From the NCBI GenBank assembly GCA_002305475.1, contig DBRB01000019.1, positions 56,022-120,021 on the forward strand: 64,000 nucleotides of DNA, written 5' to 3'. This DNA comes from a candidate division WWE3 bacterium UBA1379. GTDB lineage: Bacteria; Patescibacteriota; WWE3; UBA101185; UBA10185. The notes under the pieces are model-generated. The model saw nothing but the letters and a program-made list of their open reading frames with translations. It had not been told where the DNA came from and made no database searches. Positions within the stretch are counted from its first letter, which is position 1. The number at the start of each line of letters is the position of its first letter. Made by a program: the position numbers and the translations under genes. Positions 7,245 through 62,355 of this stretch are shown piece after piece.

Positions 7245-7645
7245 ATAGTGCCAAAAAGGCCTTTGGCTTTGTTGGCACATGGCAGGGAGAGCAGCCACGA
7301 AACGCCAGTACGCGTGTATGGGGTACACGTCAGTATAGGCGCTTTGAGCGCTGCTAACCCTGGGATGCAGTAGTATCTCCTGCATCGCCCACTTATGGGA
7401 GAGATACAATGATTATGCCTTATATGAAGGCATAATGCCTGGCTGAGAACATTTGCCTTAGAGCATGTTCCAGTCTAGGTATAGACAATGGCTGATAGCT
7501 ATTGGAAGGGATGATCCTAGATCTTACAAATACCGCGAGGTAAGCCAGGATTTGAACAACCAAGAAAACCTACTAATGATTCCCATATATCATAACTTGC
7601 GAGGGAATCACTGTAGTAGACTGCTTAAAGCCAGAAAATTACACG
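7245..7645. ncRNA. Candidate structured non-coding RNA of unknown class; strand not determined (plus strand slightly favoured)
   Basis: A ~400-nt island visibly far GC-richer (estimated >50% by eye, not computed) than the ~35% GC neighbourhood. Many perfect local stems: GTGCCAA…TTGGCAC (7246-7280) enclosing palindrome AAGGCCTT; CGTGTA-TGGGG-TACACG (~7311-7329); GGCGC-TTTGA-GCGC (~7338-7352); GATGCAG-N9-CTGCATC (~7364-7386); ATTATGCC-N9-GGCATAAT (~7413-7438). Followed by a 9-bp perfect hairpin AAAGGCCGG…CCGGCCTTT (7671-7709). No conserved motifs of RNase P, tmRNA, SRP, 6S or tRNA found. Confidence 0.35.
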
Positions 7646-7737
7646 GATACCTTTTTTGTATTCGTGTCTAAAGGCCGGAACAGGATTTTACATCCCTACC
7701 GGCCTTTATCATTTGATAAACGATTTTAGATTAAGGG

Positions 7738-7770
7738 ATAAAAAATCCCGGAACTAAGTCCGGGATTTCG
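7738..7770 (-). terminator. Rho-independent terminator downstream of fusA
   Basis: Minus strand reads CGAAATCCCGGACTTAGTTCCGGGATTTTTT: a 7-bp GC stem (ATCCCGG/CCGGGAT) followed by a U-run, 23 nt after the fusA stop. Confidence 0.75.
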
Positions 7771-7792
7771 TGTTATTCGATTTGATAATTCT

Positions 7793-9868
7793 TTACTTTC
7801 CGCTTTTGACCAATTCAGCAACGTTTGCCGGAACTTCAGCATAGTGGCTCGGTTCCATGGTAAAAGAAGCCCTTCCCTGAGACATACCCCTAAGTTCAGT
7901 TGCATATCCAAACATTTCAGCTAAAGGAACCTTAGCGCTGATTGCTCTGGCATTACCCCTTGTTTCCGTACCCTCAATCTGGCCTCTCTTTGAGGAAAGA
8001 TTTCCGATAACATCACCCATAAATTCTTCAGGTGTTACAACCTCAACTTTCATGATAGGTTCTAAAAGATACGGACGGGCTTTATTCTGTGCATTCTTGA
8101 ATGCTTCAGCAGCAGCCATCTTAAATGCCATTTCGGAAGAGTCAACATCATGGTATGAACCGTCTATTAGAGTAAATTTCACATCCACTACCGGATATCC
8201 TGCTACCACACCGGTTTCTGCAGCATCACGCAAACCTTTTTCTACAGGAGCGATGTATTCTCTTGGAATAGAACCTCCAACAATCTTGTTTTCAAATTCG
8301 ATGCCAGCCCCTCTTTCCAATGGTTCCATTGTAATAACCACATGACCATACTGTCCGCGTCCACCGGATTGTCTGATGTGTTTTCCTTCCACTTCCACTT
8401 TGTCCTTAATGCTTTCTCGGTAAGCAACTTGTGGTTTACCTGTGTTTACTTCAACATTAAATTCTCTTCTCATACGATCAACGATAATATCCAAATGCAA
8501 TTCACCCATACCATAAAGAACCGTTTCTCCAGTTTCTGCATCCGATTTAACCTTTAAAGTAGGATCTTCTTCCAAAAGTTTTTTGAGAGATTCCCCGAGT
8601 TTATCTCGGTCTGCCTTAGTCTTAGGTTCAACAACTAAACCGATAACCGGTTCGGCAAAACTGATTGCTTCCAGAGTGACGAATTTTCCTTCTTCACACA
8701 ACGTATCTCCTGTAGTTGCTTCAACACCGATGACAGCACCTATTTCCCCCGCTTTCAGTTCCTTCACTTCTTCTCTATGATTTGCATGCATTAACAAAAG
8801 TCGACCAATTCGTTCTTTTTTGTCTTTGGTTGAGTTATAGACATAGGAACCTGCACTAATCATTCCTGAATATACTCGGACATAGGTTAATCTTCCAACA
8901 TATGGATCTGTCTGAACCTTAAATGCCAAAGTAACCATCTGTTCAGATGAATCAGGATTCACTTCAACAGGATTTCCGTCCTTGTCATAACCAAGGATAT
9001 GTCCGACGTCTTTAGGAGATGGGAGAAAATCTATCACACCGTCCAGCATTTTCTGCACCCCGACATTTGCCAATGATGCTCCGGCATAAACGGGAAATAG
9101 CTCATGGGCGATGGTAAGTTTTCTGATACCTGCTTTCAGATCTTCAACAGTAATTTCTTCACCACCTAGATACTTTTCGATTAAAGCGTCATCACCTTCT
9201 GCTACCTTTTCCACCAGAATTTTTCTGTATTCCTCCGTTTTTTCCTGCATATCTTGAGGTATCTGAATCTCTACTACATCAGCACCCAGTTTCCCTTCGA
9301 ATCTGTATGCTTTTCTTTCAATCAGATCGATAACGGAATTAAACTCACCTTCCAAGCCGATCGGAAGCTGAACAGCAACAGCATTTTTAGTCAGACGCTC
9401 ATGAATAGATTTTAAGGACATGTAGAAATCCCCCCCGACTTTATCCAGTTTATTTGCAAAAAAGAGAAGGGGAACATGATATTTTTCCGCCTGTCTGAAA
9501 ACAGTCTCTGACTGAGGTTCAACACCCTGTGAAGAGTCCAGTAAAATTACTCCTCCATCTAATACACGAAGTGATCTTTCAACTTCAGCAGTGAAGTCAA
9601 CGTGTCCAGGAGTATCAATAATATTAATTCGATGATCTTTCCAGAAACAGGTAGTAGCAGCGGATGTAATGGTAATACCCCGCTCTCGTTCCTGTGCCAT
9701 CCAGTCCATCTGGGCCGCACCTTCATGAGTCTCACCTATTTTATGAGACCTTCCGGTGTAATAAAGCACCCGTTCGGTAGTCGTGGTTTTTCCCGCATCA
9801 ATATGTGCGATAATACCAATATTTCTGATCCTCTCCAGAGGATATGTTTTGTTCATTGTGTCTGCCAT
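7793..9868 (-). CDS. fusA: Elongation factor G
   Basis: 691 aa. [25 protein letters not shown]-domain motifs. Placed between rpsG and tuf. Confidence 0.97.
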
Positions 9869-10086
9869 ATGTATAATTCCTTTTTAGTTTGTAACTTCTT
9901 GTTTCAATTAATCAAATAAGACCTAGCAAATATACAATATTTTCCGAAAAATTGCTATATTTCGCAACAATCCTATACTAGTAGTATTCTATTCTTGTAT
10001 TAAATTGTATTTAAGGCTAGTGGTTTACTTTTTTGTAACTTGTGTATAAAGGCTCCCTTTCGGGAGCCTTCTTGTTTTCTCAACCT

Positions 10087-44648: not shown

Positions 44649-45037
44649 ACAGATGCTTTCCTTTTATCAATAACCCACCTAAGCACGAAATAAAATATGG
44701 CATTGCATAATATCAATAAAATATAAATAAATAAATTTTCAGTATCTACACTCAATAATTCCATAACTAATAACCATGCTACTGAAGCAATAAAACTTGC
44801 AGGTACAACATATATAAAACCTGCGGGAAAAATAATAAGATCATCAATAAAAGCATTCTCAGATTAAACCTGATTATAAATAAAGCTGAGGAGTTATCAT
44901 CTGCTAAAAACTGAACACAAGGAGGATAGTACGATAAAAAATGTAGTGCGTAGGACAGTAAAACCAGCAGTAAATAACCATACAATAAGCGAAATCTCCA
45001 CATCTTTAAGTAGTTTTGTTTTAGCATATTACTGTCT

Positions 45038-46126
45038 CTACTTAGGTAGATAATACTTCAGATTCTCCTGCGTTAAATATACTCCCTGTGATTTTCCGCT
45101 CACAATTTCCAAAGCTACCTTTCTACAGATTGCTTCCAGCGTCCTTCCCAAACTTCTTATACCACTGTCATATCCAAAAGGTCTAACAATTCCCGGCCAT
45201 AGATTAGGATCAATCTGCAGCTCACCTTCCTTCAGTCCGGTCCGTTCATATATTTTAGGGAGTAAATAATCTCTGGCAATCACGATTTTTTCATCATCGG
45301 TATAGGAAGGCATTTTAATCACTTCCATACGATCCATCACCGGTGTAGAGATCGTTCCCGTATTGTTTGCCGAACAGATGAATAATACCTCGGATAGATT
45401 AACCGGAAAATCCACATAATGATCCCGGAATTCCGGGTTCTGGTTAGGATCAAGTATTTCCAAAAGTGTAGCCATAACATCAGCTCTCAAACCGGTTTCC
45501 CCGCTGGCTTTTTCAATTTCATCCAGAAGAATTAAGGGGTTACGCACTTTTGTTTTTATCAGTGCTTTGATAATCTGACCCGGTTCAGCTTCAGGATAAA
45601 CTTTGCTTCTTCCTCTTAATTCCAGGGTAGATCCGATAGCACCGATTGATATACGGACAAATTCCCTACCCAAGGCTTCCGCAACCGACATCGCCAGCGT
45701 AGTTTTACCAATACCCTGAAGTCCTACCAGAAGCAAGATTGGTGTTTTTGCCGTAATATCCCCCCCTCTTTCTTTGATCAACTTAAGAGTAGCCAGATAT
45801 TCAATAATACGATCCTTAACCCACTCCATCCCGAAATGGTTTTTATCCAGTATCTTTTTAGCTTCTTCTAAATCCAAAGTATCTTCAGTACGTGTTACCC
45901 AGGGAATGGAAGTGACAACATCGATATAACGGGCTAAAGTATCAAATTCCTCCGCATAATGCCCGATTTGCGCCATACGGTTTAAACGCTCAAGCATCTG
46001 ATTTAGACGCTCTCTTAAAAGATCAGGCATCCCTTCAGTCTGTTCTACTTTGTCGGATAAACTTTTCAGTTCTTTAAATAAAAAGTCATCTTGTTTTTGA
46101 ATATCAATAGTTTTTGTATCTGTCAT
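45038..46126 (-). CDS. Lon-like AAA+ ATPase module lacking the LAN N-domain and the S16 protease domain
   Basis: 362 aa. Walker A GLQGIGKTTLAMSVAEALGREFVRISIG (compare Lon [24 protein letters not shown]). Walker B NPLILLDEIEKAS. Sensor-2 region SLGRTLEAICRKVA (compare Lon RNLEREI.K.CRK). The ORF ends right after the AAA+ alpha-helical lid, so no Ser-Lys protease domain follows. Confidence 0.7.
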   Translation of the reverse strand: MTDTKTIDIQKQDDFLFKELKSLSDKVEQTEGMPDLLRERLNQMLERLNRMAQIGHYAEEFDTLARYIDVVTSIPWVTRTEDTLDLEEAKKILDKNHFGMEWVKDRIIEYLATLKLIKERGGDITAKTPILLLVGLQGIGKTTLAMSVAEALGREFVRISIGAIGSTLELRGRSKVYPEAEPGQIIKALIKTKVRNPLILLDEIEKASGETGLRADVMATLLEILDPNQNPEFRDHYVDFPVNLSEVLFICSANNTGTISTPVMDRMEVIKMPSYTDDEKIVIARDYLLPKIYERTGLKEGELQIDPNLWPGIVRPFGYDSGIRSLGRTLEAICRKVALEIVSGKSQGVYLTQENLKYYLPK

Positions 46127-46148
46127 ATTTCAAAAGAATTCTGCAAAT

Positions 46149-47099
46149 CTATTGGATAACCAGCTCATTGTATCCCGTACTTAGGATAATTTCGAGATCC
46201 TGTTTAGCTCTGTCTGATCCATATTTCTCAACTATATTAGAAAGATCCTTTTTTATATCATCATTAAAAAACATTATCAGTAAATGCCCTTCCCGAGGTA
46301 GTACCGCTTTAGCTGTTGCATACTTTTGGTTTAAACCAAGATTCGTTTCCTTCTTTTGACCTGCTGATTCTGACTGCTCAATTAATGCATCGTTTGTTGC
46401 CATTAATAATTTATCTTCTATCACCTTATGCTTAAAACTTCCCTCAAATCCTTCCAGCAATTCAATAATTTTCTTATCCACACCATCGGTTTCTTTTAGC
46501 AAAGTTACAGCACCCCATTCCAGATTCCCTTCATTCCTTAAAGCATAGATAACAAACGGGTCATCCAATAATAGATTAAAGAGTTTAAGATAAACTGCTT
46601 CTTCTGTTGTATTCAGGTAAGTATTGGAAAAGTCTTTATAGCTGTGACCCTCAATATAAAGCTCGGCATCTTTAGGCACAAAGTCTAAAAGACTATGCGT
46701 ATTAAAAATTTTGGAAGGCCATGTGTAACCAAACTGCAGAGTATTGGGAACAGCAGCTACATTGTTTTCCATAATAATCCGATTGATTCTCACGGACTGG
46801 CTGTTACTGCGGTAAATGAGAACAATATTGATCAGAACAGATATTCCCGCCACAATAAGAATCAGGCTTCTTTTCAGATCCTGGTTGTCCAGAATAAACC
46901 CCAGATGCTTTTGAATCTGCTGACTGATCATACCTGAAAAAAAGGACTTACCGGATGACTGAGGAATATATCGTGTGATCTGTGTAATCACAGGTTGTCT
47001 TACCAGATTGGCATCAAGAGGATTGGCACAGCTAGCACAAAAGTAGTATTCATTATTACCTAAAATTGATTTGCACTTGGGGCAGACTCTTACAGACAT
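46149..47099 (-). CDS. Zinc-ribbon / single-TM / extracytoplasmic-domain protein of unknown function
   Basis: 316 aa. N-terminal CPKC…CASC zinc ribbon. One TM (SLILIVAGISVLINIVLIY). ~220-aa C-terminal domain. Lies 23 bp upstream of the Lon-like gene (likely operon). Confidence 0.55.
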   Translation of the reverse strand: MSVRVCPKCKSILGNNEYYFCASCANPLDANLVRQPVITQITRYIPQSSGKSFFSGMISQQIQKHLGFILDNQDLKRSLILIVAGISVLINIVLIYRSNSQSVRINRIIMENNVAAVPNTLQFGYTWPSKIFNTHSLLDFVPKDAELYIEGHSYKDFSNTYLNTTEEAVYLKLFNLLLDDPFVIYALRNEGNLEWGAVTLLKETDGVDKKIIELLEGFEGSFKHKVIEDKLLMATNDALIEQSESAGQKKETNLGLNQKYATAKAVLPREGHLLIMFFNDDIKKDLSNIVEKYGSDRAKQDLEIILSTGYNELVIQ

Positions 47100-47180: not shown

Positions 47181-47223
47181 AAAAAACGGGGAAAAGAAAC
47201 ACCCCCTCATAATGAGAGGGTGT
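47181..47223 (-). terminator. Rho-independent terminator downstream of pnp
   Basis: Minus strand: stem CCCTC/GAGGG (with extra flanking pairs) around loop ATAATGA, followed by TTCTTTTCCCCGTTTTTT, just after the pnp stop (47251). Confidence 0.6.
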
Positions 47224-47250
47224 CTTGTTATTCCTAATAATAAAAAGGGC

Positions 47251-50839: not shown

Positions 50840-51730
50840 ATGCAGGATAGATTTACCTATAAAGAATTCTTGAAAAAGTATAAAGATGATGACATCTGTC
50901 TTGAGGAAATCAAAAATCTGCGCTTCCCTGGTGGCATTACCTGCTCTTCCTGCAAAAAGATCACCAACCACTACCGTATAAAAAGCAAAAAAGTCTATTC
51001 ATGCGAATTTTGTGGAACTCAGGTGAGTCCTTTAGCAGGAACAATCTTCCATAAATCCTCCACGTCATTACAAGACTGGTTTATGGCAATCTACCTTATG
51101 ACTCAAACGAGAAGCGGCACCTCTGCTAAGCAACTACAGCTCATGCTTGGTGTTACCTATAAAACAGCGTGGAGAATGTACAAACAAATTAGAACCCTCA
51201 TGGCTGAAAATTCCGTCACTCCTCTTAATGGAGATGTTGAAATAGATGAAACATACATAGGCGGAGAGGGAATGAATCGGAGATTTAAACCACATTTTAA
51301 CGAAATCCCCAAAGAAGCTGTTATGGGCATGCTCCAAAGGGGTGGAAAAACATATCTTAAACATATTAAAGGAACTGGCAAATGGTATTTGATCGAACAA
51401 ATCAAAACTCATGTTGACCCAGTTGCAAGGCTTATCACCGATGAACTCGCTGCTTACAGAAATCTACCCAAACATGGTTACACGCTTCACGATGTTGTAA
51501 ACCACTCAGAAACGTATGTGGCTGGAGGTATACACACCAACAATATCGAAAACGTGTGGTCTATTATCAAGCGAGGAATATACGGAGTCTACCGAAATGT
51601 TTCGAAAAAATACCTGCAAGCCTATATTGACGAATACGCCTTTAGGTTTAACTACCGCAATCAAGATGAAAATATGTTCTACACACTTCTCAGACAAGTG
51701 GTTAACGTGAGGTTGGTTTCAGTTTTTTAA
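50840..51730 (+). CDS. IS1595-family (ISXO2-like) DDE transposase with N-terminal zinc ribbon
   Basis: 296 aa. CSSCKK…CEFCG zinc ribbon. DDE-domain region. C-terminal …KYLQAYIDEYAFRFNYRNQ matches the IS1595-family …YL(D/Q)E(F/Y).FR(F/Y)N.R signature. ~80-85% identical to ORF 61462..62355. Confidence 0.8.
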   Translation: MQDRFTYKEFLKKYKDDDICLEEIKNLRFPGGITCSSCKKITNHYRIKSKKVYSCEFCGTQVSPLAGTIFHKSSTSLQDWFMAIYLMTQTRSGTSAKQLQLMLGVTYKTAWRMYKQIRTLMAENSVTPLNGDVEIDETYIGGEGMNRRFKPHFNEIPKEAVMGMLQRGGKTYLKHIKGTGKWYLIEQIKTHVDPVARLITDELAAYRNLPKHGYTLHDVVNHSETYVAGGIHTNNIENVWSIIKRGIYGVYRNVSKKYLQAYIDEYAFRFNYRNQDENMFYTLLRQVVNVRLVSVF

Positions 51731-61461: not shown

Positions 61462-62355
61462 ATGCAAGACAGATTTACCTACAAAGAATTCCTGAAAAAA
61501 TATAAAAATGATGATATCTGTCTTGAAGAAATAAAAAATCTTCGTTTTCCCGAGGGTATTAACTGTTCTTCCTGCAAAAAGATCACTAATCACTACCGGA
61601 TTAAAAGTAAAAAGGTCTACTCTTGTGAATTTTGTGGTACTCAGGTGAGTCCTCTGGCTGGGACGATTTTCCATAAATCTTCAACCTCTTTACAAGACTG
61701 GTTTATGGCGATCTACCTCATGACCCAAACAAGAAGTGGTACATCATCAGCTAAGCAGCTACAACGCATGCTCGGTGTTACCTATAAGACAGCATGGAGA
61801 ATGTACAAGCAAATTCGCACCATCATGGCTGAGAATTCAGTTACTCCACTAGATGGAGAGGTTGAAATAGATGAAACTTATATTGGTGGAAAAGGGATGA
61901 ACAGGAGGTTTAAGCCACATTTCAACGAAATTCCAAAAGAAGCAATAATGGGGATGCTGCAACGAGGTGGTAAAACGTATCTCAAACACATCAAAGGAAC
62001 TGGAAAATGGTATTTGATTGAGCAAATCAAAACCCACGTTGATCCAATTGCAAGACTAATCACTGATGAACTGGCGGCATATAGAAATCTACCTCAACAT
62101 GGCTATATGCTTCATGATGTAGTAAATCACTCAGAAACTTATGTTGTAGGTGATATTCACACCAACAATATTGAGAATGTCTGGTCGATTATCAAAAGAG
62201 GCATTTATGGAGTTTATCGGAATGTTTCCAAGAAATATCTACAAGCCTATATCGATGAATACGTATTTAGGTTCAACTGCCGCAATCAAGATGAAAATAT
62301 GTTTTACACACTACTGAGACAAGTAGTTAACGTGAGGATGGTTTCGGTTTCTTAG
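61462..62355 (+). CDS. IS1595-family (ISXO2-like) DDE transposase, paralog B
   Basis: 297 aa. Collinear with and ~80-85% identical to 50840..51730. Same zinc ribbon and …YIDEYVFRFNCRNQ C-terminus. Confidence 0.8.
   Translation: MQDRFTYKEFLKKYKNDDICLEEIKNLRFPEGINCSSCKKITNHYRIKSKKVYSCEFCGTQVSPLAGTIFHKSSTSLQDWFMAIYLMTQTRSGTSSAKQLQRMLGVTYKTAWRMYKQIRTIMAENSVTPLDGEVEIDETYIGGKGMNRRFKPHFNEIPKEAIMGMLQRGGKTYLKHIKGTGKWYLIEQIKTHVDPIARLITDELAAYRNLPQHGYMLHDVVNHSETYVVGDIHTNNIENVWSIIKRGIYGVYRNVSKKYLQAYIDEYVFRFNCRNQDENMFYTLLRQVVNVRMVSVS

Follow-up and report, generated by a model that had tools for sequence, protein, structure and literature searches.

A protease-less Lon-type AAA+ ATPase and its zinc-ribbon partner gene in WWE3-type bacteria

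The window analyzed here is a stretch of 64,000 nucleotides of contig DBRB01000019.1 from the candidate division WWE3 bacterium UBA1379, and its subject is a pair of adjacent genes that encode a zinc-ribbon membrane protein (the partner) and a short Lon-type AAA+ ATPase (the short Lon). The host is a WWE3-type bacterium of the candidate phyla radiation (CPR; Patescibacteria) with a small genome of ~39% GC. The locus lies in a core-gene region, with rpoB/rpoC-sized open reading frames (ORFs) and genes for EF-G, EF-Tu, SecA, SerRS and a ClpB/ClpC-like protein elsewhere in the window. On the strand of the pair, a DHH-like gene, rpsO and pnp lie upstream, while a spacer, a family-4 uracil-DNA glycosylase (UDG) gene, the RNase J gene, a 382-residue ORF and the genes for FtsK and an HTH_25 (RodZ-like) protein lie downstream of the short Lon. 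Both ORFs are found where an earlier, preliminary description of this DNA had placed them (Table 1). The partner gene does precede the short Lon immediately, at a distance of 22 nt instead of the 23 bp given before. An intrinsic-terminator-like hairpin with a U-tract directly follows pnp, which probably makes the pair the first genes of a separate transcript. An RsmY RNA element over this terminator was considered and rejected, as the Rfam match (19 bits versus 57) is at chance level.

Table 1. Features of the short Lon locus and of other parts of the window (positions in the window)
Feature	Position	Strand	Remarks
Partner gene, 316 aa	46149..47099	(-)	Zinc ribbon + single transmembrane helix + ~220-aa C-terminal domain, probably extracytoplasmic
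C4 zinc ribbon, residues 1-32	47004..47099	(-)	C6, C9, C21, C24; sole invariant part of partner
Predicted transmembrane helix, residues 78-96	46812..46868	(-)
Fast-evolving alpha/beta domain, residues 97-316	46152..46811	(-)	No recognizable family or fold
Short Lon, 362 aa, LonA-derived AAA+ ATPase	45038..46126	(-)	Three-helix bundle + NB + lid; no N-domain, no S16
Three-helix bundle, residues 18-73	45908..46075	(-)	alpha8-alpha10 of LonA HI(CC); AlphaFold2 helices 18-29, 35-54, 58-73
Walker A G-L-Q-G-I-G-K-T, residues 135-142	45701..45724	(-)	LonA GPPGVGKT
Remodelled pore-loop 1, residues 173-184	45575..45610	(-)	RSKVYPEAEPGQ; LonA HRRTY[VI]G[AS][ML]PG
Walker B D202-E203	45518..45523	(-)	61 residues past K141, as E. 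coli Lon K362-D423
Sensor-1 N254	45365..45367	(-)	120/120
Arginine finger R266	45329..45331	(-)	120/120
Sensor-2 R324, in GIRSLGR	45155..45157	(-)	120/120
Intrinsic-terminator-like hairpin + U-tract 3' of pnp	47181..47225	(-)	13-bp stem, dG -22.6 kcal/mol, z -4.05
AT-rich spacer between short Lon and UDG, 389 bp	44649..45037	(-)	Too short for S16; peculiar to this genome
Hydrophobic ORF in spacer, 82 aa	44779-45027	(-)	Two predicted hydrophobic segments
ORF between RNase J and FtsK, 382 aa	40945-42093	(-)
Two-ring Clp/Hsp100 gene, 879 aa	33978-36617	(+)
IS1595-family transposase gene	50840-51730	(+)
ORF, 2,916 aa	51855-60605	(-)	Flanked by the two transposase genes
IS1595-family transposase gene	61462-62355	(+)

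The identification of the 362-residue product as a Lon AAA+ module was confirmed by several comparisons. It matches positions 255-570 of the 795 positions of the NCBIfam model TIGR00763 'lon' (E 8e-103), Pfam detects AAA and Lon_lid only, and LonA chains in the PDB align over residues ~19-360 with E values of 1e-70 to 1e-83, among them B. subtilis 3m6a (7e-83) and the E. coli fragment 6n2i (2e-75). The scores fall below the equivalog cut-offs for 'endopeptidase La' (345.4 bits versus 608 for TIGR00763, because two thirds of that model are missing from the protein, and 264 versus 891 for NF008053). An AlphaFold2 model based on 38 family members (pLDDT 87.6, pTM 0.81) retrieved exclusively LonA structures among its top 50 Foldseek matches, with query-normalized TM-scores of 0.77-0.83. 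Normalized to 6N2I, the TM-score is 0.86, indicating that the model covers this whole fragment. 6N2I is E. coli Lon (EcLon) residues 235-584, i.e., EcLon(235-584), and consists of helices alpha8-alpha10 of the HI(CC) domain followed by the NB and H domains (PMC6722904); the natural short Lon is thus the equivalent of a laboratory construct. Its N-terminus corresponds to EcLon ~235-250, and no hydrophobic transmembrane segment is present within the ATPase. The complete HI(CC) domain with its long coiled coil is absent and the last three helices alone are kept, so the protein is more than a bare AAA+ module. The loss of both the substrate-recognition and the protease domains had been recognized correctly.

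All residues expected for ATP binding and hydrolysis are conserved. K141/T142, D202/E203, N254, R266 and R324 are present in each of 120 family members, as are G135, L136, Q137, G138 and G140 of Walker A. Based on the EcLon motif definitions and spacing of PMC9569914, the residue offsets in the N254/R266/R324 series are 113/12/58, versus 111/11/58 in EcLon. The segment LEAICRKVA, previously assigned as sensor-2, is actually the helix after the true sensor-2 arginine. The last lid residues (N355, L356, Y359, L360 and P361) are as conserved as in LonA.

On the other hand, the loops that line the pore have been remodelled. In pore-loop 1, LonA has a Tyr in 58 of 58 sequences, followed in all 58 by V/I/L, whereas the window copy reads V-Y-P-E in place of T-Y-[VI]-G and lacks the canonical motif. 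The WWE3 short Lons conform to [RK]-S-K-x-[F76/Y23/L18]-P-[ED]-A-E-P-G, with the Pro in 106 of the 120 members, and other short-Lon clades have Q/E/N/F/H/S at the Tyr position. Similarly, the pore-loop 2 aromatic residue (F/Y/W in LonA) is Leu in 119/120 WWE3 short Lons, beside a 2-residue insertion. The WWE3 pore loops are therefore without the canonical aromatic-hydrophobic grip of polypeptide translocases, and their strong conservation within WWE3 implies that they are functional. Within the protein itself, these changes are the chief indication of a substrate or mode of action unlike that of Lon.

The short Lon terminates at the end of the lid, and the boundary of the protease (P) domain falls exactly there. 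By using eight S16 (Lon_C) domains and six LonA N-terminal regions as tblastn queries against the window and related loci (536 kb), an S16 domain was detected neither in the window nor in 29 WWE3-type loci taken with flanks of up to 10 kb; the sole match was the positive control, a full-length Leptospiraceae Lon in locus L030 (E 1e-31 to 1e-51). The LON N-domain was likewise not found over the same 536 kb, neither domain being present in the window or in ~470 kb of related flanking sequence, and PF02190 gave no match in the short Lon. Ser/Lys S16 catalytic motifs were found in no real ORF of the window by a six-frame motif search, and the Pfam annotation of five loci that represent other short-Lon clades (among L032-L037) contains no Lon_C either. 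From the stop codon of the short Lon to the start of UDG there are 389 bp, which contain no S16 similarity in any frame, and an S16 domain needs ~600 bp. The preliminary observation that the protein ends where S16 should begin, with no protease following, is thus borne out, as the 82-residue ORF is all that lies in between. In relatives, the gene after Lon (UDG or NUDIX) begins 2-20 nt past the Lon stop, and in 12 relative loci it is a NUDIX hydrolase of ~175 residues. The idea that the spacer is a NUDIX remnant was discarded after tblastn and hidden Markov model (HMM) searches gave no signal.

A word-indexed search revealed at least 120 clusters of proteins with the same architecture (352-392 residues, 69-80% identity, all with AAA and Lon_lid only), and 120/120 stop 0-1 residue past position 362 of the window copy. 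These sequences are already public under generic names, either 'AAA family ATPase' or 'Lon protease' where a name is given, from WWE3, 'Saccharimonadales', 'Nomurabacteria' and 'Patescibacteria group'. Across 26 WWE3-type loci, the median identity of the short Lon to the window copy is 71%, and the same comparison gave 74% for ribosomal protein S15, 68% for the release factor, 62% for both PNPase and UDG, 56% for FtsK and 52% for RNase J. These identity levels show that purifying selection on the short Lon is as strong as that on S15.

An exhaustive search of representatives identified further lid-terminated Lon-AAA proteins with 40-56% identity and 343-703 residues, which are extended at the N-terminus by low-complexity sequence and contain no further domain; two of them are labelled Dojkabacteria. 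In a neighbor-joining tree of 309 columns, built by this method only with top-scoring representatives as the LonA set and no LonB/LonC outgroup, 15 WWE3 and 14 other short sequences were split from 40 LonA representatives in 60/60 bootstraps. A single short-Lon clade therefore takes in WWE3, Dojkabacteria and unlabelled CPR contigs. Its members share residues that are absent from LonA (L136, T143, S174, E181, M218, W310, P316, G318 and D320), and the window copy has the whole set of clade traits, namely a core of ~350-370 residues, the end at the lid, a Walker A of the form G-[LVI]-[QAV]-G-x-G-K-T, S174/E181 ('S-K..A-E-P-G'), W310/P316/G318/D320 and a place within the monophyletic group. At the sequence level, these comparisons show the short Lons to be monophyletic, CPR-restricted descendants of LonA that have lost the N-domain, most of HI(CC) and the whole of S16, and one ancient loss of the N- and P-domains is the simplest reading. 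It is very probable that they form a real, functional family of protease-less Lon ATPases. The suggestion that this could be a known short Lon-like family holds true for the conserved family, but not for an established function: neither NCBIfam nor Pfam yielded a model dedicated to the family, and no description of a protease-less Lon in CPR or of its zinc-ribbon arrangement was found in the Lon literature searched.

The same searches also revealed a number of large Lon relatives. P0135 (Candidatus Dependentiae, MFC1854773.1), P0137-P0151 and others have ~890-1,400 residues and two or three complete Lon-type AAA+ modules; in the two scanned with Pfam (P0135 and P0139), AAA + Lon_lid modules are followed by a single Lon_C. 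We know of no description of such 'multi-ring' Lons. The possibility that the short Lon is a detached D1 ring of these tandem-AAA Lons was rejected, both tandem modules being equally distant from it (35-40% identity).

The partner evolves in a very different way. Its median identity is 23% (range 21-30%), versus 71% for the ATPase, and C6, P7, C9, F20, C21, C24 and L28 are its only invariant residues. The description of the partner as a zinc ribbon, a single transmembrane helix and an outside domain of ~220 residues was accurate, with CxxC motifs at 6 and 21, the helix at 78-96 and an N-in orientation. Among 20 members, the ribbon was matched by the Pfam families DZR (16/20), Zn_Ribbon_TF (14/20, best 1.4e-5) and Zn_Ribbon_1 (9/20), while the window copy itself gave a marginal profile match alone (DZR_2, E 0.095). 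The N-terminus thus has the properties of a C4 zinc ribbon, for which metal binding is predicted. Across the family, the transmembrane helix is flanked by 131 Lys + Arg residues on the N side and 84 on the C side, which, by the positive-inside rule, supports an N-in topology and a cytoplasmic ribbon. A search with the single sequence found 1 homologue, compared with 14 for a profile built from 20 locus-derived homologues. The AlphaFold2 model has a pLDDT of 59 overall and of 70-88 over ~140-250 only. For the C-terminal domain, profile searches gave no Pfam match and no PDB sequence match, and Foldseek returned nothing from the PDB at E < 0.05 (best TP0453, E 0.06).

Conservation of the gene pair across relatives, a check proposed in the preliminary description, was examined by an HMM search of all loci, which placed a zinc-ribbon ORF directly upstream of Lon in 24/25 informative WWE3-type loci, mostly with gaps of -26 to +19 nt. 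The partner is intact and full-length in 19 loci and split into two ORFs in 2 (L011 and L022); it is reduced to ribbon and transmembrane helix (99 residues) in 1 locus (L025) and to the ribbon alone (45-47 residues) in 2 (L009, 6145-6282; L023, ~9841-9981). These reduced ORFs are intact and keep all four Cys, and those of L009 and L023 overlap the Lon start by 8 nt, as do several full-length copies. In L025, pnp is gone and the zinc-ribbon ORF still stands beside Lon. Some lineages can do without the transmembrane helix and the outside domain, three of them having lost the latter. The persistence of reduced but intact, Lon-linked ORFs implies that the part selected for joint production with Lon is the cytoplasmic zinc ribbon. 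Gene callers probably overlook mini-ORFs of 45-47 residues.

Beyond WWE3, the gene order is only partly retained and the zinc ribbon is missing. The order is nusA-infB-x-rpsO-pnp-Lon-RNase J in L034 (short Lon 49% identical), x-Lon-RNase J-x-FtsK-HTH_25 in L035 (~46%) and rpsO-pnp-...-DUF4012-Lon-FtsA/PilM-like-...-FtsK-RodZ-like in L037 (40%). In L036 (50%), Lon is flanked by L25 on one side and by FtsA-like/GroES/GroEL/ClpB-like genes on the other; in L032, an M23 peptidase gene (7529-8191) lies 4 nt downstream of Lon; and the context in L033 (Dojkabacteria) is unrelated. No zinc-ribbon homologue was found in L032-L037 by HMM search, suggesting that the rpsO-pnp…ftsK backbone is older than the zinc-ribbon pairing; this backbone may reflect the inheritance of gene order or point to a function. 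Fusions of a zinc-ribbon/transmembrane protein to Lon were also sought in other clades as Rosetta-stone evidence and rejected, the N-terminal extensions being Q/P-rich and of low complexity, with no Cys pairs and no transmembrane segment.

Several observations on the neighbours stand apart from the pairing itself. An FtsA/PilM-like actin-fold ATPase is encoded just downstream of Lon in two clades (L036, 10218-11462; L037, 9147-10373), and a DUF4012 single-pass membrane protein lies 5 nt upstream of Lon in L037. The FtsA/PilM-like, M23 and DUF4012 neighbours are possible hints of a connection to the envelope or division. A relationship between the DUF4012 protein and the C-terminal domain of the partner was tried and dismissed (hhalign probability 1.4%).

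Elsewhere in the window, the 382-residue ORF has no Pfam, NCBIfam or PADLOC match; its position is empty in the close relatives L002-L004 and is occupied by an unrelated-looking gene of 460 residues in L035. The segment 50840-62355, which comprises the 2,916-residue ORF and the flanking transposase genes, has a GC content of 0.43-0.45 versus ~0.39; the higher GC and the transposases suggest that it is mobile or recently acquired. The 879-residue Clp/Hsp100 scores 577 against the ClpB cut-off of 1232 and 521 against the ClpA cut-off of 993. It may be a divergent CPR Hsp100, relevant to the proteostasis repertoire of the host.

Taken together, these data can be read as an autonomous Lon-derived AAA+ remodeller to which a trans-encoded zinc ribbon serves as adaptor or membrane tether, a full package that we regard as having about an even chance of being correct. 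The short Lon would form a Lon-like ring and use ATP hydrolysis to remodel or unfold clients without degrading them, resembling ClpX minus ClpP, or ClpB. The specificity of the central channel would have changed along with its loops, from Tyr-Ile/Val-Gly to [F/Y/L]-Pro-[E/D] in pore-loop 1 and from an aromatic residue to Leu in pore-loop 2. In WWE3, the zinc-ribbon protein, probably co-transcribed with Lon and often overlapping it in translation, would take over in trans the function of the lost N-domain. Its cytoplasmic C4 ribbon may dock on the ATPase as an adaptor or regulator, a role comparable to that of the zinc-binding domain fused within ClpX. Where there is a transmembrane helix, it would keep the ATPase membrane-bound, much as the anchors of LonB, LonBA and FtsH do, and the fast-evolving outside domain would be an accessory that several lineages have discarded. 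The regulatory unfoldase/adaptor pair envisaged in the preliminary description is compatible with this scheme and is strengthened by the near-universal adjacency of the zinc ribbon in WWE3; it needs amending in that the conserved part of the partner is the ribbon, not the transmembrane helix or outside domain, and in that distant clades have no partner.

A number of points weigh against the remodeller scheme. The ring, the ATPase activity, the threading and the contact between ribbon and ATPase are predictions. LonA draws on its N-domain and protease to form hexamers, and AAA+ fragments taken in isolation, 6N2I among them, crystallize as monomers. The variability of the pore-loop-1 aromatic in other short clades is unusual for a polypeptide translocase. 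Moreover, the lack of a zinc-ribbon gene in the clades with 40-50% identity implies that the ATPase does not generally depend on one, and CPxC...FCxxCGxxL is also a generic zinc-ribbon consensus, which need not mark a specific interface. Finally, the negative results for S16 hold for the window and the related loci, which leaves a low probability of a protease encoded elsewhere in the genome.

Other explanations differ mainly in what they make of the missing protease domain and of the neighbouring genes. A pseudogene, a decayed Lon, or a sequencing or assembly frameshift that masks a contiguous protease domain has nothing but the unusual architecture in its favour and can practically be dismissed: the spacer is without S16 similarity in any frame, the same architecture with the same C-terminus recurs in at least 120 clusters from independent assemblies, and invariant catalytic residues go together with S15-level conservation. 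This explanation is already refuted by the present data, and with it both the 'decayed Lon' and the hidden frameshift that had been considered at the outset, the spacer, the six-frame motifs and tblastn being negative alike. A split Lon, in which an S16 domain encoded elsewhere in the genome docks non-covalently under the short-Lon ring to give a two-component protease like HslUV or ClpXP, would account for a protein that stops exactly where the P domain would begin and for terminal lid residues (N355, L356, Y359, L360 and P361) that are conserved to the LonA level. It is nevertheless quite unlikely, as S16 was found neither in the 64-kb window nor in the 29 WWE3-type and five other-clade loci, and as UDG or NUDIX follows the Lon stop within 2-20 nt in relatives. 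Split genes usually remain adjacent. Membership in the known anti-phage defence ATPases, such as the Lon-like BrxL type, was rejected in view of the housekeeping context and of PADLOC matches that are to generic AAA only (best E 2e-6, 25 bits).

The nature of the partner and of the backbone genes gives rise to two further alternatives. The zinc-ribbon/transmembrane protein could be an unrelated neighbour or a substrate, such as an anti-sigma-like membrane signal transducer, brought next to Lon by operon packing. Many anti-sigma factors combine a cytoplasmic Zn module, one transmembrane helix and an outside domain, and the 23% median identity of the partner against 71% for the ATPase, its C-terminal domain without a recognizable fold and the absence of the ribbon from other short-Lon clades would all fit. 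This is rather improbable, however, given that three lineages keep an intact ribbon-only or ribbon-and-helix ORF still overlapping the Lon start, that the ribbon stays with Lon in L025 despite the loss of pnp, and that it occurs in 24/25 loci. Alternatively, the short Lon could be a non-threading ATPase that serves the housekeeping process of its neighbours, either RNA decay (PNPase, RNase J) or division and envelope functions (FtsK, RodZ-like HTH_25, FtsA/PilM-like, M23), and the zinc ribbon would then bind nucleic acids or a partner instead of serving as an adaptor for protein substrates. This is unlikely, yet it draws on several findings: rpsO-pnp-[short Lon]-RNase J(-FtsK-HTH_25) is shared by WWE3 and the 46-49% clades (L034 and L035), L037 has rpsO-pnp...Lon...FtsK-RodZ-like, FtsA/PilM-like genes follow Lon in L036 and L037 and M23 follows it in L032, and the pore-loop aromatic varies across clades. 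Moreover, LonA binds nucleic acids, and PDB entry 6n2i was deposited as 'DNA-binding ATP-dependent protease La'. On the other hand, core-gene synteny in streamlined CPR genomes can persist by descent alone, the contexts of L032, L033 and L036 differ, and the terminator-like hairpin parts pnp from the pair in the window.

A bolder version of the remodeller reading, which is speculative and unlikely as a whole, would be that the Lon motor was converted once, early in the CPR radiation, into a stand-alone, non-degrading housekeeping machine. In WWE3, its clients would be picked by a trans-encoded ribbon that resembles the ClpX zinc-binding domain and is membrane-anchored in most lineages. The targets of the machine would be components of RNA decay (PNPase/RNase J) or of division (FtsK/RodZ/FtsA-like), with which it has remained syntenic across class-level divergence. 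If true, a protease would thereby have given rise to a new functional class of AAA+ proteins. Lon is the textbook fused motor-peptidase AAA+ protease, and the short-Lon clade runs against that picture. Ultra-small CPR genomes keep few dispensable genes yet retain the short Lon, and the conservation and intact catalytic residues of this protease-less clade suggest that the Lon motor has an essential job without proteolysis. Such a clade may offer a natural system for parting the chaperone/remodelling activity of Lon from degradation, it bears on protein quality control in CPR bacteria with minimal proteostasis networks, and the zinc-ribbon mini-proteins of 45-47 residues provide a small, testable candidate adaptor.

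Among known systems, LonA (MEROPS S16 subfamily A; E. coli Lon, B. subtilis LonA and human LONP1) is the closest. The short Lon has the same bundle + NB + lid fold (TM 0.77-0.86), 37-45% identity and a motif spacing that is identical or within 1-2 residues, and 52 positions are conserved in all three groups (WWE3 short Lons, other short Lons and LonA). It differs from LonA in the absence of the PUA-like N-domain, the long coiled coil and the S16 Ser-Lys protease, in a Walker A with GLQG for GPPG, in x[FYL]P[ED] for TY[VI]G in pore-loop 1 and in Leu for an aromatic residue, with a 2-residue insertion, in pore-loop 2. Hence, the LonA-type AAA+ module and the Walker/sensor spacing are there, while S16, the N-domain, the full HI(CC), the canonical pore loop and an equivalog-level score are not, a departure from the canonical Lon pattern that had been noticed from the start. 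According to a 2022 survey, all Lons are single chains with both ATPase and protease domains (PMC9569914).

Comparison with the defining features of the other Lon classes confirmed a LonA-type AAA+ module and an assignment to neither LonB, LonBA nor LonC. LonC of Meiothermus taiwanensis is described as having kept the protease while its AAA-like module is degenerate and ATPase-inactive (PMC3391209, PMC13069640). LonC is likewise a Lon relative that gave up one of two coupled activities, but it is the mirror image of the short Lon, which has intact ATPase motifs and no protease. LonB has a transmembrane insertion of >100 residues between Walker A and B, and LonBA has 82 residues from the Walker A Lys to the Walker B Asp and an N-terminal transmembrane helix; both keep the protease (PMC9569914). 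Archaeal LonB and B. subtilis LonBA resemble the short Lon in being without the LonA N-terminal region, and they act at the membrane, to which the short Lon is possibly tethered via its partner; unlike them, it has a LonA-like spacing of 61, no transmembrane segment and no protease.

Outside the Lon family, ClpX is a single-ring AAA+ unfoldase capable of remodelling without its peptidase, and it recognizes adaptors and substrates by means of a C4 zinc-binding N-domain. This zinc-binding domain (ZBD) is also mentioned in PMC6722904. ClpX carries its zinc domain within the same chain, has GYVG as its pore loop and contacts ClpP through IGF loops, whereas the zinc ribbon described here is a separate and often membrane-anchored protein. 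The AAA+ module of the short Lon falls in the Lon clade, not in that of ClpX, and has no known peptidase partner. Finally, generic proteins with a zinc ribbon, a transmembrane helix and an extracytoplasmic part (Pfam DZR and Zn_Ribbon_1) share with the partner the N-terminal CxxC-x11-CxxC, the basic linker and one transmembrane helix; the partner differs from them in its unmatched C-terminal domain and in its tight gene coupling to a Lon-type ATPase, which is specific to this lineage.

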